Shown here piece by piece: positions 28,453 through 42,343 of a stretch of DNA of 64,000 nucleotides. The stretch comes from Candidatus Latescibacterota bacterium (GTDB lineage: Bacteria > Latescibacterota > UBA2968 > UBA8231): NCBI GenBank assembly GCA_965248355.1, contig OZ252098.1:4032001-4096000 (forward strand), given 5' to 3'. A program made the translations under genes and the position numbers. The notes under the pieces are model-generated. The model saw nothing but the letters and a program-made list of their open reading frames with translations. It ran no database searches and was not told the origin of the DNA. Each line of letters starts with the position of its first letter. Position 1 is the first letter of the stretch.

Positions 28453-29394
28453 ATGAGAACAGAGCGCCGGAATTTCGCTCGCACGGCTGCGGCCGCCGGC
28501 CTCACGGTCCTGGTGGCCGCCCTCGCCGGACTGGCCTGCGGCGATCCCGACCCCGAGCCGCAGATCCAGCTCCTGCGCAGCCTGCAGCCCGAGATCCGCG
28601 AGAAGGCCGCGGGCAAGCTCCTGCTCTACGGCGAGCGCGTCGTGCCTCGTCTCATCCAGGAGTCCGAGTCCGAGTACACCCGGGTGCGCTTCGAGGTGGC
28701 CCGCCTCCTCGGCCGCCTGCGCGACCCCCGGGCCGCCGACGCTCTCGTCCGCCTCCTCGACGACAACTCCTTCAACGTCGCCTCGTACGCCGCCTGGGGC
28801 CTGGGCGAGTTGCGGGCCAAGAAGGCCCTGCCCGTGCTCCTGCGGTTCACGGAGACGCCGGCCAAGACCTTCCGCCAGCAGGTCGTGCAGGCCGTCGGCT
28901 CCTGCTACGACGACACCCTCCACGCCGCCTTGGGCGACTCCGTGCGCCGGGTGATCGAGCGCGCCTTCCACGATCCCGTCCCCGGCGTCCGCATCGCCGC
29001 TCTCGGCAGCGCCCGCCACCTCGGCTACGCCGGCATGGTGGAGGCGCTCATCCGCCTGGCCGGGGACCGCGAGGCCAAGGTCCGCCACGTCGCCGTCCAG
29101 ACCCTCGGACAGGCCGCCATCGGCCGGGCCCCGCGCTCGCCCGGGCCGGCCCCCGCCGCCGAGCGGGCCGCCATCGAGCAGGCCCTGCTGCTGAGTCTGG
29201 AGGACTCCTACCAGAGCATCCGCACCAAGGCGGTGCGCGCCCTCGAGCAGATGGGCCCCCCGCCCGGGGCCGCCCCCGCCCTGCGCCGGCTCGCCGAGGG
29301 CGGCACGGTCGAGGACCGGCGGGAGGCCGGGCGCGTCCTCGAAGCGATCGCCGCCGGGGCCGCGGCACCTGCGGGTACGCAGGTCTCCGGATGA
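28453..29394 (+). CDS. HEAT-repeat lipoprotein
   Basis: Lipobox LAGLAC; repeats VRFEVARLLG, VASYAAWGLG, VRIAAL, VRHVAVQTLG. Confidence 0.85.
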   Translation: MRTERRNFARTAAAAGLTVLVAALAGLACGDPDPEPQIQLLRSLQPEIREKAAGKLLLYGERVVPRLIQESESEYTRVRFEVARLLGRLRDPRAADALVRLLDDNSFNVASYAAWGLGELRAKKALPVLLRFTETPAKTFRQQVVQAVGSCYDDTLHAALGDSVRRVIERAFHDPVPGVRIAALGSARHLGYAGMVEALIRLAGDREAKVRHVAVQTLGQAAIGRAPRSPGPAPAAERAAIEQALLLSLEDSYQSIRTKAVRALEQMGPPPGAAPALRRLAEGGTVEDRREAGRVLEAIAAGAAAPAGTQVSG

Positions 29395-30281
29395 CGGAGT
29401 CCGCCCCCGGCCTGCGCATCGGCTTTCCTTCCGGCAGCCTGCAGCAGGCGACCCTCCGGCTCTTCGACCGCGCCGGCTACCGCATCGACCTGCCCTCCCG
29501 CTCCTACGAGCCCGAGGTCGACGACCCCGAGCTGTCGGGCCTGATGTTCCGCGCCCAGGAGATCGCCCATTATGTTGAACGCGGCGTCGTCGACGTGGGC
29601 ATCACCGGCCACGACCTGGTCCTCGAGTGCGACGCCGATGTCCACGAGATCGGCGAGCTGCGCTACGGCAAGGCCTCCTCCCGGCCCCTGCGCTGGGTCA
29701 TCGCCGTCGCCGAGGACTCTTCCATCCGCTCTTTGGAGGACCTCCGAGGCAAGCGTATCGCCACCGAGCTGCCGGGCGTCACCCGCCGCTTCCTGAGCGA
29801 GCGCGGGATCGACGCCGAGGTCGAGTTCTCCTGGGGCACGACCGAGGTCAAGGCCGGCATCCCGGGGGTGGCCGACGCCGTCGTCGACATCACCGAGACC
29901 GGCTCCTCCCTGCGCGCCAACCGCCTGCGCGTTCTCGAGGTGATGCTGGAGTCCACCACCCGCTTCATCGCCAATCACGGCGCCTGGAGCGACGGCTGGA
30001 AGCGGCGCAAGGCCGAGAACCTCTTCACCCTCCTCGTCGGCGCCCTCGAGGCCGAGTCCAAGGTGGGGCTCAAGATGAACGTCCCCCGCGAGCGCCTGCC
30101 CGAGGTCATGCGGAACCTGCCCGCCCTCCACGCCCCCACCGTCTCCAGCCAGGCCGACGAGGCCTGGGCCGCCGTCGAGATCATCGCCGACGAGATCGTC
30201 GTCCGCGACCTGATCCCCCTCCTCAAGCGCTGCGGCGCCGAGGGCATCATCGAGTACCCCCTCAACAAGGTCGTCTACTGA
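29391..30281 (+). CDS. hisG: ATP phosphoribosyltransferase (long form)
   Basis: FRAQEI, DVGITG, SWGTTEVK, DITETGSSLRANRL, C-terminal regulatory domain. Confidence 0.95.
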   Translation: MTESAPGLRIGFPSGSLQQATLRLFDRAGYRIDLPSRSYEPEVDDPELSGLMFRAQEIAHYVERGVVDVGITGHDLVLECDADVHEIGELRYGKASSRPLRWVIAVAEDSSIRSLEDLRGKRIATELPGVTRRFLSERGIDAEVEFSWGTTEVKAGIPGVADAVVDITETGSSLRANRLRVLEVMLESTTRFIANHGAWSDGWKRRKAENLFTLLVGALEAESKVGLKMNVPRERLPEVMRNLPALHAPTVSSQADEAWAAVEIIADEIVVRDLIPLLKRCGAEGIIEYPLNKVVY

Positions 30282-30292
30282 GGGCGCGGCCT

Positions 30293-31615
30293 GTGCTCGA
30301 CCTCGTCCACTACACCTCCGGCGGTTCGCTGCGGGGCCGGCTGGCCGAGGTCCTCGGCCGGAGCGGCGCCATCCCCGCCGAGATCGAGGAGGCCGTGGCC
30401 GGCATCCTGGCGGCGGTGCGCGACCGCGGCGACGCGGCGGTCGCCGAGTTCACGGCCCGCTTCGACGGCGTGAGTCTGACGCCGGGCCGTTTCCGCGTCC
30501 CGGGCAAGGCCCTGCGGGACGCCCTGAACTCCGCCGACCCCGGGCTCATGGCCGCCATCGGCCGCGCCGCCGCCAACATCCGCGCCTTCCACGAGGCCCA
30601 GAAGGCGGACTCCTGGTTCCGGGAGGACGGCGACGGCGTCGTCCTCGGCCGCCGCATCACCCCCCTGCGCCGCGTCGGCATCTGCGTGCCGGGCGGCGAG
30701 GCGCCGCTCATCTCCAGCCTGCTCATGGCCGCCGTTCCCGCCCAGGTGGCGGGCGTCGACGAGATCTGCGTCGTCACCCCGCCCCTCCCCTCGGGCCGGC
30801 CCCACCCCGGCCTGCTGGCCGCCGCCGGCTTCCTCGGCCTCACCGAGGTCTACGGCATCGGCGGCGCCCAGGCGGTGGCCGCCCTCGCGTACGGCACCGG
30901 CACCGTGCCCGCCGTCGACAAGATCGTCGGCCCCGGCGGCCCGTACACGGTCGCCGCCAAGCGCCAGGTCTACGGGATCGTCGGCATCGAGATGGTCCCC
31001 GGCCCCTCCGAGATCGCCGTCCTCGCCGACGAGAGCGCCGACCCCGTCTTCATCGCCGCCGACCTGCTCTCCCAGGCCGAGCACGGCTCCGGCTTCGAAG
31101 CCGTCGTCTGCATCACCACTTGCGAAAAGCTGGCCGCCGCCGTGCGGGACGAGGTGGAGCGCCAGATGGCGGACCTGCCCCGCGCCGAGGCCGCCGGCCG
31201 CGCCCTGTCGCGCTTCGGCGTCGTCGTCACCGTGCCGGACCTGGAGACCGGCGTCGAGCTGGTCAACCGCCTCGCCCCCGAGCACCTGGAGCTGCTCGTG
31301 GCCGAGCCCTGGACCTGGCTCGAGCGTGTCCGCCACGCCGGCGCCGTCTTCCTCGGCGAGGCCTCCACCGAGCCCGTGGGCGACTACTACGCCGGCACCA
31401 ACGCCGTCCTGCCCACCAACGGCGCCGCCCGGTTCGCCTCCGCCCTCGGGCTGAGCGACTTCGTCAAGGCCACCAGCGTCGTCGCGTACACGCCCGATCG
31501 CCTGCGCGAATCCGCCGCCGACGTGACCCTCCTGGCGCGCGCCGAGGGCTTCGAGGCCCACGCCCGCGCCGTCGAGGTCCGTCTCGAAGCCTGGAGCCGG
31601 GAGGGATCCCCATGA
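30293..31615 (+). CDS. hisD: Histidinol dehydrogenase
   Basis: [50 protein letters not shown]. Confidence 0.95.
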
Positions 31616-32205
31616 CCGACGTCCGCCGGGCCCGCGTCGAGCGCCGCACCTCCGAGACCGAGATCGACCTCACCCTCGTCCTCGACGGCTCCGGCCGCTG
31701 CGAGGTCGGCACCGGCGTCGGCTTCTTCGACCACATGCTCCACGCCTTCGCCCGCCACGGCCTCTTCGACCTCACCCTCACCTGCCGCGGCGATCTCGAC
31801 GTCGACGCCCACCACAGCGTCGAGGACGTGGGCATCTGCCTGGGGCAGGCCCTGGCCGAGGCCCTCGGCGACAAGGCCGGCATCCAGCGCTTCGGCCACG
31901 CCTACGTCCCCATGGACGACGCCCTCGCCCGGGCCGTGGTCGACCTCTCCGGGCGCTCCTACCTGGCCCTCAACGCCGCCTTCCGGGACGGCTCGGTGGG
32001 CGGCCTGCCCGTGGCCCTCGTACCCGAGTTCCTGCGCGCCTTCGCCGATCACGGGCGCCTCAACCTGCACGTGGACCTGCTGCGCGGCGCCGACGACCAC
32101 CACGGCATCGAGGCCATCTTCAAGGCCCTGGGCCGCGCCCTCGACATGGCCACCCTGCGCTCCGATCGCGTCTCCGGCGTGCCGTCCACCAAGGGCACCC
32201 TATAG
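31612..32205 (+). CDS. hisB: Imidazoleglycerol-phosphate dehydratase
   Basis: TGVGFFDHML, DAHHSVED, PMDDAL, DDHHGIE, PSTKGTL. Confidence 0.95.
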   Translation: MTDVRRARVERRTSETEIDLTLVLDGSGRCEVGTGVGFFDHMLHAFARHGLFDLTLTCRGDLDVDAHHSVEDVGICLGQALAEALGDKAGIQRFGHAYVPMDDALARAVVDLSGRSYLALNAAFRDGSVGGLPVALVPEFLRAFADHGRLNLHVDLLRGADDHHGIEAIFKALGRALDMATLRSDRVSGVPSTKGTL

Positions 32206-32229
32206 AGCCATTCATTTAGGACCATCGTA

Positions 32230-32436
32230 ATGACCCAATGGATGAAGGACCGGCTGGAGCGCAAGCGCGAAGAGGTTCGGCAGCAGGCCTTGCTGGAGGG
32301 TCGCCAAGAGGGTCGCCAAGAGGGCCGTGAGGAGGGCCGGCAGGAGGCCTGCCGGGAGGCCAACGCCTGGGCGAGGAAGCAGAGACTGAATCCGCCGTTC
32401 CCGGATCTGGAAGAGGATTCCTCCGGCGACCGATAG
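32230..32436 (+). CDS. 68-aa EGRQ-repeat protein (stand-alone copy of the C-terminal domain of 32596-33084)
   Basis: MTQWMKDRLERKREE..EGRQEGRQEGREEGRQ; AGGA 8 nt upstream; intact frame. Confidence 0.65.
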   Translation: MTQWMKDRLERKREEVRQQALLEGRQEGRQEGREEGRQEACREANAWARKQRLNPPFPDLEEDSSGDR

Positions 32437-32547
32437 GGGGTCCGCCGCGCCACGCGGCGGGCGGCTCATTCATTTCCGACGAGGCCTCCATGGCCAGGCA
32501 GGACCGCAGGCGCGACCCCCGCTGCAAGGCGATCTCCTGGCCATTCA

Positions 32548-32576
32548 TTGCGGGAATGATGCCCCGGGAGTATCAT
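32548..32576 (+). promoter_or_regulatory. Sigma70 promoter of the 2-TM EGRQ gene, overlapped by an inverted repeat
   Basis: TTGCGG (32548-32553), 17 bp, TATCAT (32571-32576); ATGATGC..GTATCAT dyad. Confidence 0.6.
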
Positions 32577-32595
32577 CGGCCATGGAGCCTTTCTG

Positions 32596-33084
32596 ATGGA
32601 GCCGGAATCCGGGGGAAGAGTCGGGATATGGTCCATTGTCGAGGACAAGCGGGTCTGGTTCGTGACCGGATTTCTGGTCATCGATCTCTACGGGTCTGGA
32701 CTGGTAGTTTGGTCTGAGGTGACCGAGGGAAAAGGTCTTGTCGATACTTCCCTGGGCATCATTCGGGGTCTGGGGCAGGTCGTCATCGCAGCCGTCTGCA
32801 TACCTTTTGCCATCCTTCAAGGAGTGGATATGACCGGCGTAATGACCCAATGGATGAAGGACCGGCTGGAGCGCAAGCGCGAAGAGGTTCGGCAGCAGGC
32901 CTTGCTGGAGGGCCGCCAAGAGGGCCGGCAAGAGGGTCGCCAAGAGGGCCGGCAAGAGGGTCGCCAAGAGGGCCGTGAGGAGGGCCGCTTGGAGGCCTGC
33001 CGGGAGGCCAACGCCTGGGCGAGGAAGCAGGGACTGAATCCGCCGTTCCCGGATCTGGAGGACGATCCCTCCGCCGGCCGATAG
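32596..33084 (+). CDS. Two-TM membrane protein with Rpn-like EGRQ-repeat C-terminal domain and internal start
   Basis: Two hydrophobic segments, then AAGGAG (32819-32824) and in-frame ATG at 32830 and 32842; seven 12-bp repeats at 32908-32991. Confidence 0.75.
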   Translation: MEPESGGRVGIWSIVEDKRVWFVTGFLVIDLYGSGLVVWSEVTEGKGLVDTSLGIIRGLGQVVIAAVCIPFAILQGVDMTGVMTQWMKDRLERKREEVRQQALLEGRQEGRQEGRQEGRQEGRQEGREEGRLEACREANAWARKQGLNPPFPDLEDDPSAGR

Positions 33085-33109
33085 CAGGGTTCCGCGCGCG
33101 CCCTCGAAG

Positions 33110-33144
33110 GCCGCCCGCCGCAACATGCGGTGGGCGGCTTCTTT
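33110..33144 (+). terminator. Rho-independent terminator
   Basis: GCCGCCCGCCGCA-ACA-TGCGGTGGGCGGC followed by TTCTTT. Confidence 0.8.
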
Positions 33145-33190
33145 GTGCTCCGCATCCTTCCCGCGCGCCACCCGCTCGACGAGGCACTCC

Positions 33191-35776
33191 ATGGCCAAGC
33201 AGGACCACAGGCGCGACCAGCGGCGCAAGGCGCCCCCCCCGCCGCCGGCTTCCGCCTCTCCCGCGCCGGCCCCCGCGCCACCCACCGCTCCCGCCCCGAT
33301 GTCCGGCCTCCGCACCTGGATCAGCCGCCCCTGGTTCGCCCCCGCCCTCTTCGCCCTGGTGGCCCTCGTCTACTTCTGGGAGTTCCCCTTCAGCGGCAAG
33401 GTCATCTTCGGCCACGACGTGGGGCTGGACTTCCACCGCGGCAAGGCGCCGGTCCTGGAGAAGCTGCGCGACCTCGTGCCCGCGGCCTGGTCCCCCATCA
33501 TGGGCGGCTACCCCGTCTCCGAGGAGATCCGCCACAAGTTCTTCCCCACCTACCTCATCGAGCTGTTCACCACCCACCAGCGCGCCGTGGGCTGGCGCTA
33601 CCTGCTGGTCGTCTTCGCCGCCGGCTACGGCATGTTCCTCTACCTGCGCCGCATCCGCGTCCACCGCTGGGCCGCCCTCTGGGGCGGCCTCGCCTTCCTC
33701 TCGGCTCCGACCTTCCTCAGCTTCCCCGAGGCCGGCCATTACGCCAAGATGACGGTCATCGCCCTCTTCCCCTTCCTCTGCCTCTGCGTGGAGCGCGGCA
33801 TGGATGGGGGCCGGCAGGCCCTGGGCTCGTGGGCCGCCCTCGCCGTCCTCATCGCCCTCGGCGTGTTTTCCCCCCACTTGCAGATGCTCCAGTACGCCCT
33901 CCTGGGCACGGGCTTCTACTTCCTTTACAAGCTCGTCCACCTGCGCCTGCGCGGCATGACCTTCCCCCGCCTCGGCGAGCGCGCCACCCTCTTCGGCCTC
34001 GCCGCCGCCCTCGGACTCGGCCTCGCCGCCGAGGGCGTCTACCCTCCCTACCTGCACGTCAAGACCCAGTCCAAGCGCGCTGCCGTCCACGACGGCACCG
34101 GCCGCACGCCCGAGGAGCAGCTCGCCCACGCCCGCAGCTGGTCCCTGCACCCGGAGGAGATGGCCTCCCTCGTCGTCCCCGAGTTCGGCGGCTTCAACGA
34201 CCCCACCGACGGCTCTCACCGCTACTGGGGCCGCAACCCCCTCAAGCTCAACTCCGAGTACTTCGGCATCCTCGTCCTCCTCCTCGCCTTGGCCGCGGTG
34301 CCGGGCGCCAGGGCCAGCCCTCTCGCGCTCTTCCTCTGCCTGCTCTTTGCCGTCGCCGCCGCCTTCACCCTCGGCGGCCACACCCCCGTCCACTGGCTCG
34401 CCTACCACCTGCTGCCCGGGGGCAAGGAGCTGCGCACCATCGGTATGGCCGCTTTCCTCTTCGCCTTTCCCGCCGTGGTCCTCGCCTCCCTCACCCTGGG
34501 CCGCGTCCTGCGGCCCGATGGCGACGCCCGCCGTCTCTCGCGCCGCATCCTGATCGCCGGCGCTGTCCTCACCGGCCTCTGCCTCGTCCTGGCCCTGGCG
34601 CCGCGCCTGGTCACGGAAGCCTGGACCGCCCTCCTCTGGTCCGACGCCCCGGAGTTCCGCCGCCGGGCCATGGCCGCCTCCGCTCCCTGGCTCGCCCGCG
34701 GGGCCCTCATCGGCGCCGCCCTCTGCGCCGCCGGCACCGCCCTCCTGCTGCTGCGCCTGCGGGGCCGCGTGGGCGCCGGCCTCCTCGTCCTCGGTCTGTC
34801 CGCCCTCACCGTGGCCGACACCTGGCGCATCGACCGCCTCTTTCTGCGCTACAAAGATCCGGCCCTTCACACCGACTTCCGCCAGGCCAACCCGGACGCG
34901 CGCCGCTTCCTAGAGCAGCAGCCCGGCCGCTTTCGCCTCTTCCCCGTGCCCGACTCCGGCTTCCTGAAGGAGGCCCGCTACCACCTGCACGGCGCCGACG
35001 TGGCCACCGGCTTTGCCAACTTCACCCTGCGCCGCTACGACCGCCTGCTGAAAGAGCTGGAGGCCCTGTTGCGCCGCCGTCACGTCGAGGGCCGCGAGGT
35101 GCCCTACACCGACGCCCAGCTGCTCGGCGCCGCCCGCCCGCTCCTCGATCTCATGAGCGCCCGCTTCCTGGTCACCAAGCGCTCCGTCGAGCTGCAAGCC
35201 GAGGGCTTTCCCGAGGTCTTCGCCGGCGCGAACCTGCGGCTCTACGCCAACGAGAGCGCCCTGCCGTGGTACTACTTGGCGCCCCGTGCCGAGGTCCTGC
35301 CCGGGGAGCGGGAGGTCCTGACGGCTCTGCGCGAGGGGCGCTTCGACCTGCGGCGCACCGTCCTGCTGGAGGAGCCAACGCCCATCGACCTGCCCGGCCC
35401 CGCCGCGGACCTGACCCGGGATCAGGTGACCGAGGAGCTCTACGACTACCGAGAGGGAATCGTGCGCCTGCGCGTAGCCGCCGGGGGGCCGCGCCTGCTG
35501 GTGATCGGCGACAACCACCACCCTCACTGGCAGGCCCTCGTCGACGGCCGGCCCGCCCCCCTGCTGCGCGCCAACTACGTCTGGAAGGCGGTGCCCGTGC
35601 CGGCGGGCGAGCACCTGGTGGAGCTGCTCTACCGCTCCCCGCCCGTAGCCCGGGCCCGCGCCGTCAGCGCCGTCTGTGCCGTCCTGGTCCTGGTTGGCGC
35701 GGGTCTGGCCCTGCGGCGGCGGCGGTCCGGATCGGGGCAGGGGCTTGAACCCGGGGGCGAGGTACCTTACCTTTGA
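33191..35776 (+). CDS. YfhO-family polytopic membrane protein (GT-C glycosyltransferase-like)
   Basis: Many TM helices, WSPIMGGYP, C-terminal LVIGDNHHPHWQALVDG..LLRANY..AVPVPAGEHLVELLY. Confidence 0.85.
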   Translation: MAKQDHRRDQRRKAPPPPPASASPAPAPAPPTAPAPMSGLRTWISRPWFAPALFALVALVYFWEFPFSGKVIFGHDVGLDFHRGKAPVLEKLRDLVPAAWSPIMGGYPVSEEIRHKFFPTYLIELFTTHQRAVGWRYLLVVFAAGYGMFLYLRRIRVHRWAALWGGLAFLSAPTFLSFPEAGHYAKMTVIALFPFLCLCVERGMDGGRQALGSWAALAVLIALGVFSPHLQMLQYALLGTGFYFLYKLVHLRLRGMTFPRLGERATLFGLAAALGLGLAAEGVYPPYLHVKTQSKRAAVHDGTGRTPEEQLAHARSWSLHPEEMASLVVPEFGGFNDPTDGSHRYWGRNPLKLNSEYFGILVLLLALAAVPGARASPLALFLCLLFAVAAAFTLGGHTPVHWLAYHLLPGGKELRTIGMAAFLFAFPAVVLASLTLGRVLRPDGDARRLSRRILIAGAVLTGLCLVLALAPRLVTEAWTALLWSDAPEFRRRAMAASAPWLARGALIGAALCAAGTALLLLRLRGRVGAGLLVLGLSALTVADTWRIDRLFLRYKDPALHTDFRQANPDARRFLEQQPGRFRLFPVPDSGFLKEARYHLHGADVATGFANFTLRRYDRLLKELEALLRRRHVEGREVPYTDAQLLGAARPLLDLMSARFLVTKRSVELQAEGFPEVFAGANLRLYANESALPWYYLAPRAEVLPGEREVLTALREGRFDLRRTVLLEEPTPIDLPGPAADLTRDQVTEELYDYREGIVRLRVAAGGPRLLVIGDNHHPHWQALVDGRPAPLLRANYVWKAVPVPAGEHLVELLYRSPPVARARAVSAVCAVLVLVGAGLALRRRRSGSGQGLEPGGEVPYL

Positions 35777-35816: not shown

Positions 35817-35846
35817 TTGACACCCCATAGGAGCCGGTGATATTAT
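35817..35846 (+). promoter_or_regulatory. Near-consensus sigma70 promoter with extended -10
   Basis: TTGACA (35817-35822), 18 bp, TG-n-TATTAT (35841-35846). Confidence 0.75.
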
Positions 35847-35934
35847 GGAGCGAATACTCACTGAACCCCCGCATTACGTCGAAACCTTTCTGCAGAAACC
35901 AGGACAGGGACCGGGCTCCCTGAGGAGGAAGAAA

Positions 35935-38900
35935 ATGCAGCGCAGGAACTATGCAGCCCTTTTGGCCGCGCTGGTGATCGGCTTCGGGGCTATCCAAGCC
36001 AACGCCGCGGAGGTGCTCAGCGTCACCATCGACGCGCCCGCGGATTCCGGCACGGTCCTCGGCATCGGCGGCGAGTTCACGGTGACAGCCGTGGTCGAGG
36101 ACTACACGGCCGAGGGCAACGACGGCGTGATCATCGCCCTGGTCACCGGCAACGACGTCGTGGCTGACAGCACTACGGGTGGCGGCAAGGATGGGGGCGT
36201 TCGTGTGGGGCCCGCTGATCCAGATACCGCAGCCATCAATACTGGCTTGGCCGGCCTGGGCCTGGGGCAGCAGGGCAGCCTTGGCATCGTCGCCGTCCGC
36301 ATCCAGAGGCAGTACGGGAACACAGACTCGAGCCGGTTCATCGGCGGCGACGCCACGTCCGTCGGCGTTGACCCGAACGCGGCGCAGGTTACCTACATCT
36401 GGAGGAGCAAGGTCCACGTCTCCAGCACGGAGGCGACGGAGATCCGGGCTGTAGCGGTGGCCGTGGATAACGGCGGTGTTACGGCTGCTGATGCGAACAA
36501 CCCCAACGGCAAGATCTCCTCGGATGGCGTGGGGCAGGTGCAGTTCGACATCGACGCCGAGCGGCCCGTTCGGCCGGCAGGGCTGATCAACGTCGAGACC
36601 AAGGGCGATCTGGTCACGGCCGTGTTGGACGCCGGAGGCACTGCGGCCACGGTCGACGTGGCCGGCATCGGGGATGTCCTGCAGTTTGACATCGCCGTGG
36701 GTCCCGGCAACATGCGCCTGCTCACTAGGTTAAACCACACGGTCGTCCTCGCGCTCAAGGACCACAACGGCAAGGAGCTCAAGTCCTACCCCGTCTCCCT
36801 GGAGGGGGCCAGGGCCGATACCCTCGCCTTCCGGCAGGCGATCGCCGAGGGCGATTTCGGCGACCTGGTCGGGAGCGCCAATGCCACGGCGCCGCAAATC
36901 GGCGGGAATGACGCGAGGAATTCGGCCACTGCCTACATCGTCGACCCGATAGGCAACCGCAGCAAGGCAGCAGCCGGGGACGACTGGATGAGTCCTAACG
37001 ACCAGGTAGGGGGTGCGAATGCCGCTATTCCCCACCTGCTCGACGCCAAGAAGCCGGTCATCGACGGCGTCAGCGGCAAGGACTTCGTTGCTACCGGCGG
37101 TGACACCTTGGAGATCGCCAGCCCCGACACCATCACCGACGGCACCCTCAATGATCCCCCCTTCTCGGACGACCTGAACCCGATAAACTACAAGTTGCAC
37201 GAGAAGCTCAGCGCCCTGGACATCGACATCGGGGGCCAGGTGCTGAAGATCACGAACCGAGAGATGGTAACATCAACCGGTGACACTGTGATCACCGACG
37301 CTGACGATGCGCTGAACCTAAATGACAGGGTTCGCGTCATCTTTTCCGTCGGTGACGACCACAAGGTCACATCGCTCGAAACTCAGAACCTGAGCGGCAC
37401 TTCTGGCCCTCGGGATCAGAGCGCCAACCTCCGCCCGGCCGCCCTCCCGGACGGCGAGCTCAAGACGGGCGTCCACACGATCAAAGTCACGGGCACCGAC
37501 TACGCCGGCAACGTGGGTCCGGCCGCCGAGCGCGCCGACGTCTATGTCGACGTCGACGACCTCGCCTTCAACGGCCTCTTCCCCACGGAGGCCGACATCT
37601 CCACGATCGAGGAGACGAGCACGTCGGACGTCAGGTTTGCCCTTAGCGAGCACGCCGACAGCGTCCTCATCTCCTACACCTACGTCAGTGGGAAGGACAG
37701 GCCCGGTGACAAGACCAGGGCCCTCGTCGGCGGCGAGCTGCTGGACCTGGAGGAGCAGGTCATCCCTGCCAGCGAGTTCATCAACGCCGCCAGGGAAGAC
37801 ACGGGTCTGGTTGACGACTCCAAGTATCAGTTGACTTTGCTCGGGGCCGACCTGGCCGGAAACTTCAGCCTCACCGATGCCGGAGCGATGACCTACGACA
37901 CCAACTACGTGGTGCCGCAGATCACCTACTTCAGCGTCTCCTCGAGCCCGCTCGGAGGGACGTGCGCGCCAGGCAAGTGCGCGGAAGCGCCAGAGGGCGG
38001 TGCGATCGTGGCCCTCGCGGACCCCAACGTCACCCTCACGATCAACGCCTGGAACAAGGAGAATGTGGCCGCCCTCGCCTACGGCAAGGTGGACGACTAC
38101 AACAACGACGCGACTGTCACGGTCGCCGGTGGTTCGGGTGAGGGATTGGCACTGTCCGGCAAGGGCGTGCTCACCGGGGGCTTGCCTGTGGGCACGGCCC
38201 GCCTCACCAAGGATGCCTGGGGCGTCGGCGTAGCCGAAGTCAAGGTGACCGCCCAGAAGGCGCCGGAGACTTACACCGTTACCGTGCATGACAGCAGTGA
38301 CGCGGACAGCCCGCACGTGGGCATGCTGGACTCCGTGCTCGTCATCAAGCACGCTGCCTACAACAAGATGGAGATCACTGTCTCCGACACCATTGATCTC
38401 GGCGCCCAGTTCCAGGTCGCCTTGAGATACGTCGACGAGTTCGGCAACACCGTGCTGGATCAGGACAACTACGTCGAGGTCAGCACCCCGATCCTCGGAG
38501 TCGAGTTGCCCCAGAACGCTCTGCCGATCACCAAGGGCACCGGCAGTTTCTTTGTCCGCAGCAACGCCTTGGGCGAGTTGGCCCTGACGGTTCGGGATAT
38601 CGGTGGCGGCAAGGCCGTCAGCAAGTCGGTGACTGTCGTCGGGGAGACGCCTGACGACGGTGATGGCGACGGTGACGGTGGGGAACCACCCATGGCGGGT
38701 CCCGCCGCTCCTGCCGAGTTGGTCGGCGAGGACTACAAGGGCGCTCTCGGCGAGGGCGATCAGGGCGGCTTCGTCATGCTCAGCTTCCCCTCCTCCGCTG
38801 ACCATTCCACCCTGGACCGATATCGCATCTGGCGTCAGATCCAGGTCACCAGGGAACTGGACGCGGACGGCAATCTCGTCGAGTTGTCCGAGCCGAAGAT

Positions 38901-40677
38901 GGACGATGTGTCCTGGGGCACGATCGACGCGATTCCCGGCGAGAGCCTGATGCGCGTCGTGGTCGCCACCCTCGACGGGGACGCCACTCACTACGGCGTC
39001 TCCTCGGAGCGGCACGGATTCGCCAGTGATCCTACAGGCACCGCTGGTGACGACGTGGACATGGGCGGTGAGGACACCATGACCGACACCAGCATGACCG
39101 ACACCAGCATGACCGACACCACCGGGCAGGGCAAGCGGGCCTTCACCGTCATGCGGTCCGTCTCCGTGCCTTACGAGTTGATGGCCGAGACCATGGTCAG
39201 GAGCAGGGAGGCGGCCGTCCGGGGTGACTTGGACGGACCGGTATTCGCCACGCTGACCCCGGAGGCCCTGGCCTTCCACGAGCGCGGCCTGCTCCCGAGC
39301 TTCAAGTCGTCCACGGAGAACGAGTTGCGCGAGCACATCACGCGCACCGAGGAGGCCGTGCGCGCCATCGACGACCTCGCCCCGGCGCCCGTTACCTGGG
39401 TGCGCGCCCTGGATACCCCGGCGGACGCTGGTGCCAGCATCACCATCGAGTGGACACGGTCGATCGATGACCGCCTGATGACCTCGATGGTGCCGCAGGC
39501 ACTCGGTGACGGCGGCAACGTCTACATCTCCGCCGGCGTGGAGGGTTACAACATCTCCCGCCGCACCGGTGACGGTCCCTGGCAGCCCATCGACGTCGCT
39601 CCGGCCGGTTCGTCTTCCTACGAGGATGTCACCGCCCAGAACGGCGTGCGGTATTCCTACAAGGTCGAGCCCACGGATCTCGACAACACCACCACCTCGG
39701 AGATTGAGCAGTCGGCCATGGCCATCCGCAACACCGTCGTCGACAGCGACGGCAACCGGATCGTCGGGCTCTTCGGCGCGGACAGCCGCGTCGACTTCGA
39801 CGACTTCTTCATCTTCGCCGACCACTTCGGTCTGACCTCCGAGAGCGATATTTACGAGGCCGCTTTCGACATCATTCCGAACGACGTCATCGACGTCGAC
39901 GACTTCTTCGCCTTCGCCGAGAGCTTCGGCAAGGAGGTCGCCGGCATCGGCAAGGTGGTCCCGACCATGGCCGGTCTGAACAGCGAGGCCCGCTTCTACA
40001 TCGACAACGCGGCGGCCGAGCCGCCGCGCGTCGGCGAGGAGCTGACCCTGCTGGTCAGCCTGGAGGACTTCGTCGAGGTCCGGGGTTACGGCTTCACGGT
40101 CAACTACGATCACAGGTATCTCGAGTTCGTCGAGCCGCGCTTCGAGAGCAGTCCGCTCGGTGAGGCGGCTCTGGCCCAGCCGCAGGTGGTCTCCAACGGC
40201 GACGGCGAGTTGCACATCGCCGCCCTCGGCGAGACCGTCAGCGAGGGCGACCTGGGTGTGACCCTCGTTTTCCGGCCCTTGGAGGAGATCGAGGAGAGCT
40301 TGGTCGAGATCATGGCCGGTGGCATCCAGGACGGCAGCTACGGGTTGAACCGGATCACCGATCCGGTCTCGGTTCGGATCGAGACGCGTCCCGAGGTCTA
40401 TGCCCTCGAGAACAACTATCCGAACCCCTTCAACCCGGAGACCACGCTCAAGTACGAGCTGCCGGACGCCAACGATGTCACGCTCGAGGTCTTCAACATG
40501 CTCGGCCAGGTCGTGCGGACGCTCGTCGACCGCGAGTTCCAGAACGCTGGCCGCTACACCTATCAGTGGGATGCCACCAACGACGGCGGGCAGCCGTTGT
40601 CCTCCGGAATCTACTTCTACCGCGTCACCGCGGGCGGAGAGTTCCAGAGCCACAAGAAGATGCTGCTCCTGAAGTAA
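35935..40677 (+). CDS. Large acidic secreted protein: Ig-like repeats, dockerin-like pair, cohesin-like domain, FlgD-Ig/T9SS type A-like CTD
   Basis: Signal peptide; DSRVDFDDFFIFADHFG and NDVIDVDDFFAFAESFG; VRGYGFTVNYD; NYPNPFNPET..SSGIYFYR..KKMLLLK; GAGGAGG RBS. Confidence 0.85.
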   Translation: MQRRNYAALLAALVIGFGAIQANAAEVLSVTIDAPADSGTVLGIGGEFTVTAVVEDYTAEGNDGVIIALVTGNDVVADSTTGGGKDGGVRVGPADPDTAAINTGLAGLGLGQQGSLGIVAVRIQRQYGNTDSSRFIGGDATSVGVDPNAAQVTYIWRSKVHVSSTEATEIRAVAVAVDNGGVTAADANNPNGKISSDGVGQVQFDIDAERPVRPAGLINVETKGDLVTAVLDAGGTAATVDVAGIGDVLQFDIAVGPGNMRLLTRLNHTVVLALKDHNGKELKSYPVSLEGARADTLAFRQAIAEGDFGDLVGSANATAPQIGGNDARNSATAYIVDPIGNRSKAAAGDDWMSPNDQVGGANAAIPHLLDAKKPVIDGVSGKDFVATGGDTLEIASPDTITDGTLNDPPFSDDLNPINYKLHEKLSALDIDIGGQVLKITNREMVTSTGDTVITDADDALNLNDRVRVIFSVGDDHKVTSLETQNLSGTSGPRDQSANLRPAALPDGELKTGVHTIKVTGTDYAGNVGPAAERADVYVDVDDLAFNGLFPTEADISTIEETSTSDVRFALSEHADSVLISYTYVSGKDRPGDKTRALVGGELLDLEEQVIPASEFINAAREDTGLVDDSKYQLTLLGADLAGNFSLTDAGAMTYDTNYVVPQITYFSVSSSPLGGTCAPGKCAEAPEGGAIVALADPNVTLTINAWNKENVAALAYGKVDDYNNDATVTVAGGSGEGLALSGKGVLTGGLPVGTARLTKDAWGVGVAEVKVTAQKAPETYTVTVHDSSDADSPHVGMLDSVLVIKHAAYNKMEITVSDTIDLGAQFQVALRYVDEFGNTVLDQDNYVEVSTPILGVELPQNALPITKGTGSFFVRSNALGELALTVRDIGGGKAVSKSVTVVGETPDDGDGDGDGGEPPMAGPAAPAELVGEDYKGALGEGDQGGFVMLSFPSSADHSTLDRYRIWRQIQVTRELDADGNLVELSEPKMDDVSWGTIDAIPGESLMRVVVATLDGDATHYGVSSERHGFASDPTGTAGDDVDMGGEDTMTDTSMTDTSMTDTTGQGKRAFTVMRSVSVPYELMAETMVRSREAAVRGDLDGPVFATLTPEALAFHERGLLPSFKSSTENELREHITRTEEAVRAIDDLAPAPVTWVRALDTPADAGASITIEWTRSIDDRLMTSMVPQALGDGGNVYISAGVEGYNISRRTGDGPWQPIDVAPAGSSSYEDVTAQNGVRYSYKVEPTDLDNTTTSEIEQSAMAIRNTVVDSDGNRIVGLFGADSRVDFDDFFIFADHFGLTSESDIYEAAFDIIPNDVIDVDDFFAFAESFGKEVAGIGKVVPTMAGLNSEARFYIDNAAAEPPRVGEELTLLVSLEDFVEVRGYGFTVNYDHRYLEFVEPRFESSPLGEAALAQPQVVSNGDGELHIAALGETVSEGDLGVTLVFRPLEEIEESLVEIMAGGIQDGSYGLNRITDPVSVRIETRPEVYALENNYPNPFNPETTLKYELPDANDVTLEVFNMLGQVVRTLVDREFQNAGRYTYQWDATNDGGQPLSSGIYFYRVTAGGEFQSHKKMLLLK
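39078..39121 (+). repeat. 15-bp tandem repeat x3 encoding (MTDTS)n linker
   Basis: CATGACCGACACCAG repeated three times. Confidence 0.9.
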
Positions 40678-40789: not shown

Positions 40790-42343
40790 ATGCTGATACC
40801 GCGCAGGGCAACACCGATCGCGCTGGCCCTCTTTCTCGCCCTGGCGGGCGGAGCCTTTGCCGGCGACAACCAGAACGCGACCTTCACCCTCGTCGGCGAT
40901 GCATCGGTGTCCGATGTCGGTACCGACGAGAGAGTGAGCTTGGAGGTTTCCGCGGGGGGCCTGGTGGGCGTGAAGAACCTGGAGGTCGTCCTCGAGGTCT
41001 CTGACGCCGCCCACTTCGACCTGGGTTCGGCCAGGCTGGCCCTGGGCGGAGCCTTCGAGGATGTCCAGACCCTTCAGCCCCCCTCGCAGATGGAGGAGGG
41101 GACCGACAACCAGATTCGCCTGGCCGCGGCCGTCCTTCCGCCCGACCAGGTCGACGGGGAGGCTTCCTTCACCCTCTCGGTGAAGACCTCCGAAGGCTTT
41201 ACCAGCGAGACTGAGGCCTCGGTGAGCGTGGCCTTGATCTCCATCGGACCCAGCCTCGACGACCGGGACGAGTTCGACGCGGAGACTCTCGGGTTGACCC
41301 TGGTGGTCAATCCGCCGCCGCCCCCGGTCACCGATCCCGCTTTGGCGGCCTCCACGGCCACCGACGTGAGCGCGGATTATTCGGCCGTCGATACCGGCGC
41401 TTCGGCGGACGGCAGCGACGGCGAGGTCACTCTCGGCGTCTCCTTCGCCGATGCCTCCGGGGCCGCCGCCGCCGGCCAGAGCATCACCTTTACCGTGAGC
41501 AACGCCGGGTCCGAGACCGTGCACGTCCTCGGTGAGGGCTCCGCTGCCGCCGGTGAGTCGCTCGAGGTGAGCGTCGACACCGACGGCTCGGGCGCTGCCT
41601 CCATCACCCTCGACGCCGAGGGTGACAAGTCCGCCGGCAGCACCAGCGTTTCCGTCTCGGCCGCTACCAGCGCCGACAACTCCGAAGGCACTTCGATGGC
41701 CCTGGGCGTTGACTTTGCCGTCACCTGGGACGTCCCCGTGCCCGCCGAGTTGGCCAGCTTCGCCGGCGAGATCGCCGGAGAGGAGGAGATCCTCCTGCGC
41801 TGGAGCGTCGCCTCCCAGACCAACAACCTCGGATGGGAGGTCTATCGCAGCGTCGACGGCGAGGTCTTCGAGCGCGTCGGCCCGCTGGTTGCCGGCGACG
41901 GCACCACCGACGAGTTCCGCACCTACGAGTTCGTCGACGTGGATCCGCCGGGCTCCGACGTCCTCTACTATTACTTGCGGCAGGTCGATCTGAACGGCGC
42001 CGTCACCCGCTCCCAGACAATCGAGATTCTCTTTGCTACGGGTCTTGGAGAACAGGTGATTCCCCTGGCCAGCGCCCTGCAACAGAATTATCCCAACCCC
42101 TTCAACCCTGGTACCACCATCCGCTTCGATCTCGCCGAGGGGTCCTTCGTGACCCTGCGTATCTACGATGGCCTCGGCCAGGTGGTGCGCACCCTCGCCG
42201 AGGCCGCCCTGCCTCCCGGCAGCTACAGCAAGCTCTGGGATGGCCGCGACACCCGCGGTGTCAGAGTCGGCAGCGGCGTCTACTACTACGAGTTGCGCGC
42301 CGGGCCCTTCAGCAGCATGAAGAAGATGACCCTCGTTCAGTAG
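40790..42343 (+). CDS. Secreted Ig-like protein with FlgD-Ig/T9SS type A-like CTD
   Basis: Signal peptide; PAELASF..LRWSVASQTNNLGWEVYRS module; QNYPNPFNPGT..SGVYYY..KKMTLVQ. Confidence 0.85.
   Translation: MLIPRRATPIALALFLALAGGAFAGDNQNATFTLVGDASVSDVGTDERVSLEVSAGGLVGVKNLEVVLEVSDAAHFDLGSARLALGGAFEDVQTLQPPSQMEEGTDNQIRLAAAVLPPDQVDGEASFTLSVKTSEGFTSETEASVSVALISIGPSLDDRDEFDAETLGLTLVVNPPPPPVTDPALAASTATDVSADYSAVDTGASADGSDGEVTLGVSFADASGAAAAGQSITFTVSNAGSETVHVLGEGSAAAGESLEVSVDTDGSGAASITLDAEGDKSAGSTSVSVSAATSADNSEGTSMALGVDFAVTWDVPVPAELASFAGEIAGEEEILLRWSVASQTNNLGWEVYRSVDGEVFERVGPLVAGDGTTDEFRTYEFVDVDPPGSDVLYYYLRQVDLNGAVTRSQTIEILFATGLGEQVIPLASALQQNYPNPFNPGTTIRFDLAEGSFVTLRIYDGLGQVVRTLAEAALPPGSYSKLWDGRDTRGVRVGSGVYYYELRAGPFSSMKKMTLVQ

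Follow-up and report, generated by a model that had tools for sequence, protein, structure and literature searches.

The 64,000-nt window analysed here (the whole stretch of DNA, numbered from its first letter) contains a 162-aa gene (32596-33084, + strand) whose full-length product, the long form, consists of an N-terminal motif, two transmembrane (TM) segments and a helical charged tail. The ORF was verified at these coordinates, and the two hydrophobic segments reported in an earlier note on this DNA are present, with Kyte-Doolittle peaks of 1.5 and 2.1. The N-terminal motif, RVGIWS (RxSIWS in the family), is described as cytoplasmic, and the tail carries 4-aa EG repeats followed by a Pro-rich end. 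The TM half has a GC content of 56%, compared with 68% in the tail and 68.9% in the genome, in agreement with the lower-GC 5' half noted earlier. A promoter-like element, TTGCGG-17-TATCAT (32548-32576, + strand), precedes the gene. Both of its boxes lie where they had been placed (TTGCGG at 32548-32553 and TATCAT at 32571-32576), but a promoter scan lists 0 sites, the element falling below its threshold, and the TTGCGG -35 box has three of six consensus matches. The claimed terminator was detected as a hairpin of the intrinsic type at 33108-33140 (whole element 33108-33148, + strand), with a fold z of -3.41. The module is flanked on the left by hisB (IGPD; 31612-32205, + strand), which lies outside it, and on the right by a gene for a large membrane protein (33191-35776, + strand) with weak YfhO/PTPS-related matches below the cut-off. 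The earlier note had described a self-contained unit; the coordinates are correct, but the unit is larger and includes a tail-only copy and a duplicated 5' piece upstream.

Some further features of this region were observed. Over 16 nt, the promoter spacer (32554-32569) shows 94% complementarity with a coding stretch at 32749-32764, which is possibly the trace of a template switch. In the congeners G006 and G007 the TTGCGG and TATCAT boxes are unchanged and the spacer between them is a different one. The window allele has Asp30 inside the first TM segment (32683-32685), where 11 close full-length homologues and the X1, X2 and X5 contigs have Ala, and this residue may weaken the long form. The genes hisG, probable hisD (so named on sequence, without a profile scan) and hisB are immediately preceded by a HEAT-repeat protein gene (window 28453-32205). 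Further on, 35845-40677 and 40790-42343 encode large proteins of secreted type (1610 and 517 aa) with FlgD-Ig / Por_Secre_tail C-termini.

At the junction between the second TM segment (TM2) and the tail, the Shine-Dalgarno (SD) sequence AAGGAG (32819-32824) is separated by a 5-nt spacer from an in-frame ATG at 32830 (Met79; whole element 32819-32832, + strand). Initiation at this ATG is predicted to give an 84-aa short form consisting of the tail only (32830-33084, + strand), the putative antitoxin, and a second in-frame ATG is present at 32842. The computed anti-SD pairing is -7.8 kcal/mol for 32830, -5.6 kcal/mol for the full-length start and -3.1 kcal/mol for 32842; the earlier note had described the internal SD as a longer match than that of the full-length gene. 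The earlier note had also proposed conservation of this SD and start among homologues as a check on the idea, and they are indeed conserved throughout a highly divergent family, with selection at the codon level. When the genes were aligned by a profile ending before the junction, an in-frame ATG was found 2-12 codons further on, after TM2, in 96 of 100 unique genes; in a held-out set, a start codon is present at the junction in 34 of 35 genes (26 ATG, five GTG and three TTG). At the protein level, Met occurs in a 7-residue junction window in 121 of 145 proteins and in 3-30 in eleven other windows, counts that are inflated because the homologues were gathered with junction-containing profiles, which leaves the synonymous test unaffected.

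The strength of the SD was scored in 21 of 22 representatives sharing less than 50% identity, whose independence is incomplete; the remaining one has no ATG. Their mean is -9.0 kcal/mol, compared with -2.6 kcal/mol for 127 internal ATGs of nearby ORFs, and values of -6 kcal/mol or below are reached by 19/21 representatives versus 9% of these control ATGs, the control ORFs being crudely called. The SD is stronger than synonymous recoding in 20/21 representatives (Wilcoxon p 4.8e-6) and in 19/20 with a narrower window. No comparable shift was found at 26 other codon offsets (maximum 13/20), and the control internal ATGs lean the opposite way (39 stronger, 80 weaker). The held-out genes give the same test result in 30/34 cases (p 1.2e-7), with an SD that reaches -6 in 27/34 and is weak (above -6) in 7/34. 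Six of the seven genes without Met at the junction show GTG or TTG there instead, preceded by an SD of -9.3 to -10.7, which argues that the start function is kept and not the residue. Taken as a reading of these sequences, a conserved in-frame internal start that produces the tail alone is almost certainly real.

The start could instead be left over from an old fusion between a TM gene and a tail gene, or arise as a side effect of a Glu-Gly...Met motif that is conserved in the protein, the short protein being irrelevant in either case. Glu-Gly codons are purine-rich by nature, so that the synonymous null itself averages about -5 to -6, and two loci (L063 and L064) display a split arrangement, both of which speak for such an origin. 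We consider it very improbable, however, as synonymous choices favour the SD at the internal-start offset alone, the SD stays when GTG or TTG replaces Met and when the junction residues change (QG, GG, NG, KE, WR, MR), and duplications repeatedly begin at most about 70 nt ahead of the internal start codon.

The genes that deviate from the pattern do so in different ways. The ATG is lost in L083, a copy missing its 5' part; L130 has a frameshift ahead of an intact SD and tail; and in L192 the start is displaced, with an SD of -11.5. At L063 and L064 the TM gene is intact and has no internal start, and a separate gene of 140 aa with its own SD (L063:1940-2359 and L064:1928-2347, - strand) comes directly behind it, at 21 and -1 nt. 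The first 40 aa of the 140-aa product are weakly tail-like (9/469 and 2/476 shuffles score as high), and the product has a weak winged-helix match. This split arrangement looks like a conventional two-gene toxin-antitoxin operon. In the database proteins P0008, P0151, P0154, P0178, P0189, P0199 and P0228 the TM part is intact and the tail is truncated or frameshifted; they are protein records only and may be errors.

The window also contains a tail-only copy of 68 aa (32230-32436, + strand), which begins 24 nt past the hisB stop. The stretch 32217-32436 copies the tail-coding half of the 162-aa gene at 87-89% DNA identity; the 68-aa ORF begins at the second ATG, its SD is weak (-3.9), and it has three repeats fewer than the full gene. 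A duplicated terminator hairpin (32435-32466, + strand; z -1.86) and a duplicate of the first 57 nt that surround the start of the downstream gene (32486-32542, + strand) are found next to it. The unit was duplicated in tandem, the first copy then losing its promoter, TM part, SD and first ATG. An assembly artefact was considered and rejected because contigs of run X8, possibly the source sample itself, are identical (0 differences) to the window over 31400-32255 and 32353-32867; the arrangement also recurs in G006. The genome G000 (one contig, 5.5 Mb) contains only these two copies, the full gene and the tail-only one.

Tail-only copies are not confined to the window. Intact copies that start at the internal start flank 10/100 genes (14 copies; flanks of 1.5-5 kb) and 7/35 held-out genes, and their SDs lie between -3.2 and -10.2, which means that some of the copies may be poorly translated. 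The close database clusters comprise 29 short proteins, every one starting at the Met79 equivalent, versus 11 full-length ones; 11 of the 29 are on contigs longer than 30 kb, and some of the short proteins may be contig-end fragments. No intact TM-only duplicates were seen in the flanks of the collected genes, and L111 has a frameshifted 35-residue TM piece. At L169, two full paralogues stand in tandem with a tail-only copy, and their internal starts are ATG versus GTG with equal SD.

A search with P0001 gave matches in 2/9 congeners. G006 has the full gene and two downstream tail-only copies, in each of which the TM part is deleted and TATCAT, SD and ATG are retained. G007 (2 contigs, 94% complete) has the promoter, SD and tail only, joined at a shared GGAG, and a contig joint with the same TM deletion is present in the RNA-library run X5. 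In G002 the gene is absent, and of the promoter the -35 box and some of the spacer remain; G002 groups with G007 in the tree (support 88/92), which suggests gene loss in G002. The large membrane-protein gene follows hisB, with the module absent, in G001, G002 and G009, and G004 has a distant paralogue at another site.

The tail changes in length in 4-residue steps (31-59 residues, with one outlier), and the distance from the internal start to ANA is 31, 35, 39, 43, 47, 51, 55 or 59 residues in 11/12 long and 28/29 short proteins. The same logic is known from rpn genes, the RpnL/RpnS toxin-antitoxin genes of the YhgA-like PD-(D/E)XK kind studied by Zhong et al. 2023, which have an internal start, 4-aa steps, separate short copies (RpnSs), tandem duplication and a patchy multi-copy spread, and in which the known role of the tail is that of an antitoxin (PMC10400941). 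The family described here is like Rpn in its internal ribosome-binding site and start giving a C-terminal tail (deduced here from sequence alone), in its 4-aa repeats of variable number within a long helix, in the extra short-only copies adjoining the gene and the tandem duplication, in its patchy multi-copy spread and, in one lineage, in carrying the same tail module. It differs from Rpn in that a two-TM hairpin takes the place of the nuclease, the window tail is a single long helix with a Pro-rich end whereas RpnS is a three-helix bundle, and the first EG is at residue 27 of the window short form whereas the Rpn repeats start 8-20 residues past the internal Met (PMC10400941). Rpn genes are enriched near defence genes and have an internal promoter for the short transcript (PMC10400941), and the present family gives little sign of defence-island clustering. 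Membership of the 162-aa protein in Rpn was rejected: in place of an N-terminal PD-(D/E)XK nuclease domain, its N-domain has 78 aa with two TM segments and no PF04754/TIGR01784 match, and NF007418 matches the repeat region only (E 0.055). Of the Rpn-like antitoxin proposed in the earlier note, the gene-within-gene logic is supported, SD and start being conserved; the short copies, the 4-aa length steps and the tail exchange with Rpn-like proteins, which that note does not mention, point to this logic as well. The tail in the window is like RpnS only in the repeats. The family appears to work like Rpn in its gene logic, yet it is not an Rpn member.

A connection to Rpn-like proteins was found in the window's own class. 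The tail of P0131, from one family of the window's own class, matches proteins of ~300-350 aa at 55-80%, with 14-28 of them in each of three genomes, and these proteins share the EG-x-M junction with SD. Six TM genes from two subfamilies bear this Rpn-like tail, their close orthologues bear the native tail, and stand-alone Rpn-type short-gene remnants lie directly behind L031, L055, L058 and L083. Deletion between repeat blocks would explain how such tail swaps arose. The label 'Rpn-like' appears to be of moderate strength, because the ~310-aa proteins stay below the cut-off in both of their matches, to TIGR01784 (E 7e-7) and to PF04754 (E 0.02), have no PDB relative, and have an N-part whose profile matches P0085 (4e-14) and P0100, a 'predicted transposase YdaD' (1.5e-8). 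The loci L075-L104 (G036, G111, G116) contain an expanded family of ~310-aa Rpn-like proteins, each with an internal SD and ATG and variable repeats, and also stand-alone short genes.

The shared tail could mean that the long form is itself non-toxic and, anchored in the membrane, serves as an antitoxin or sink for those Rpn-like nucleases whose tail matches its own, in keeping with the identity of up to 81% over 57 residues between the tails of the six members and Rpn-like proteins of the same lineage. We find this improbable: the Rpn-type tail is missing from 94/100 genes, and a search of the G000 genome gave neither a PF04754 match nor a further protein with the window tail or EG repeats. 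The commonest native tail also has no relative among five candidates in a comparison with proteins of 238-2000 aa, which is weak evidence.

The first search for the family returned 367 proteins, of which 11 are close (63-93%) and many are distant with the same plan. Profile A2, which covers the N-domain plus the junction (32 rows), finds 679 clusters at 50% identity, a family without a name. The best 150 of these 679 clusters have lengths of 98-253 aa, so there is no large fusion among them. At L189 a homologue ends a 793-codon open frame; a 793-aa fusion was considered here and set aside, as this is probably an open upstream frame instead. The family is present in 36/168 genomes of the window's own phylum and in 11/151 Dehalococcoidia, and five chosen Dehalococcoidia genomes have 7-17 matches each. 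Over 32 disjoint pairs, dN/dS is 0.17 in the N-domain; within the tail it is 0.16 across the first 16 codons and 0.27 across the last 30. Selection on the family is purifying, not diversifying. The sequence evidence as a whole argues for an internal start, for selection on both parts and for the repeated birth of short-only genes.

The AlphaFold model of the long form (pLDDT 88, pTM 0.49) is a helical hairpin of H16-43 and H48-144, the second helix extending into the tail. A fold search with the long form in PDB and BFVD gave no match at E 0.001, and the N-domain belongs to no named family in Pfam, NCBIfam, PHROGs or PADLOC; in PADLOC, 7/42 members match the single model C3a178 (best E 2.9e-5). 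The ESM Atlas contains two unnamed clusters, mostly of Chloroflexota, at 0.94 and 0.93, and a further search of it gave no named match. A cluster look-up for family members returned no names, a metagenome scan gave 79 loci that match chiefly the repeats, and no family or fold in the libraries and fold searches ties the N-domain to a known pore or effector. No description of the family was found in the literature, although it could be mentioned in subscription journals or in Dataset S1 and Fig. S6 of the Rpn supplements.

The genomic neighbourhood was scanned at 32 Dehalococcoidia loci (103/136 neighbour ORFs) and 25 own-phylum loci (63/86). Most named neighbours are metabolic or housekeeping genes. 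A defence-type neighbour, defined as a restriction-modification, nuclease or toxin gene, occurs at 3/32 Dehalococcoidia and 4/25 own-phylum loci (7/57 combined), as raw counts without a background. No relatives of the family were found in viral contigs and phage records. The housekeeping neighbours fit a reading in which the gene encodes two harmless isoforms, one membrane-anchored and one soluble, of a single helical adaptor or decoy. The soluble form would then be useful alone, for example by binding a phage or host protein, so that it is duplicated and the anchor is dispensable. Such isoforms also fit the purifying selection, the maximum of 17 matches per genome and the tail-less database proteins, and they explain the conserved start, the tail-only copies and G007 equally well. 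The EGxxEG repeats match the FliH and Yae1_N glycine-repeat models below the cut-off, of which the FliH matches are likewise in line with an adaptor, but the matches are limited to the repeats and there is no export-apparatus context. Harmless isoforms do not, however, predict that intact long genes lacking a short form should be so rare, nor the interchange with the Rpn-type tail, whose role is that of an antitoxin (PMC10400941), and we hold them to be unlikely.

From the sequences we lean towards the reading that the locus encodes a membrane toxin with an intragenic dominant-negative antitoxin, that is, that one gene would give two proteins. The long form would be an inner-membrane hairpin with both termini inside (N-in/C-in, judged from charge), and its cytoplasmic helix would mediate self-assembly. 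The assembled long form would harm the cell, most simply via membrane depolarisation. The short form, made from the stronger internal ribosome-binding site, would be the same helix without the membrane part; by binding the long-form tail it would block productive assembly, and the number of 4-aa repeats would tune the match between long and short forms. Loss or displacement of the short form, through phage shut-off or a phage protein that binds the tail, would then release the long form. We infer the two products in the cell, their binding, the toxicity, the membrane mechanism and the trigger. A complex of two long and two short forms was predicted with a score of 0.32, compared with 0.04 for the best control, a weak signal that may reflect the self-likeness of coiled coils. 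The mark used for such scores is reached by 116/157 solved pairs and 2/215 mismatched pairs, and it is reached at a score of 0.60 or less by 18/157 solved pairs and by both mismatches. At least 97% of the contacts are common to the prediction runs, and the partner pLDDT is at least 72.

Small effectors of a comparable build are known. SLATT, Cap1, Csx23 and similar proteins are two-TM antiphage effectors in which a TM hairpin is joined to a helical cytoplasmic part and membrane damage depends on oligomerisation. The long form is like them in having a small TM hairpin with a helical cytoplasmic part, and the proposed damage is borrowed from them. It differs from them in having no Pfam, PHROGs, NCBIfam, PADLOC or fold match, in its own internal start, and in that no sensor, cyclase or RT partner was seen. 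The dual-start holin/antiholin genes offer a second comparison: lambda S and phage 21 S are single ORFs with two in-frame starts whose products differ by 1-3 N-terminal residues, both products are membrane proteins, and the longer inhibits via dimers (PMC13056207). The present gene is similar in being one ORF with two in-frame starts whose sibling product would restrain a membrane-damaging protein, the damage being our proposal here. It differs from the holins in that its starts are 78 codons apart, its short form has no TM segment at all, and it lies on a chromosome; neither a phage lysis cassette nor a phage or viral match was seen.

An antiphage role for the proposed toxin and antitoxin is possible, but we would put it on the doubtful side, and it is as likely that the module is mainly addictive. 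Also tentatively, the SD, start and repeat-helix tail may form an intragenic antitoxin cassette that is portable and can be attached to toxin domains of unrelated kinds. The family would then represent this cassette on a membrane toxin: it would swap tails with Rpn-like nucleases, give rise to orphan antitoxin copies and, in one branch, have split into an operon of two genes, and the paralogues (up to a dozen or more per genome) might be repeat-tuned sensors of abortive infection. Whether an internal start also serves other toxin-antitoxin systems to make a dominant-negative regulator is, according to a commentary on Rpn, the most important open question (PMC10400984). The family is a concrete candidate answer, with another effector type, hundreds of divergent members, and natural short-only and split variants. 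Were it harmless, the family would still be a widespread, unannotated case of a gene within a gene, with a short product that annotation pipelines do not reveal.

RNA-library contigs (X1, X2 and X5) cover related gene copies; these contigs show neither strand, level nor starts, so we make no claim on expression. Four of 13 runs were compared, and 'sponge metagenome' is the sole habitat label seen, on runs with small shares. At L139 a dehydrogenase E1 alpha gene precedes the family gene, and at L140, where a short copy begins 5 nt past the stop, a transketolase-type E1 beta gene follows it; at both loci the gene apparently sits inside a housekeeping operon.
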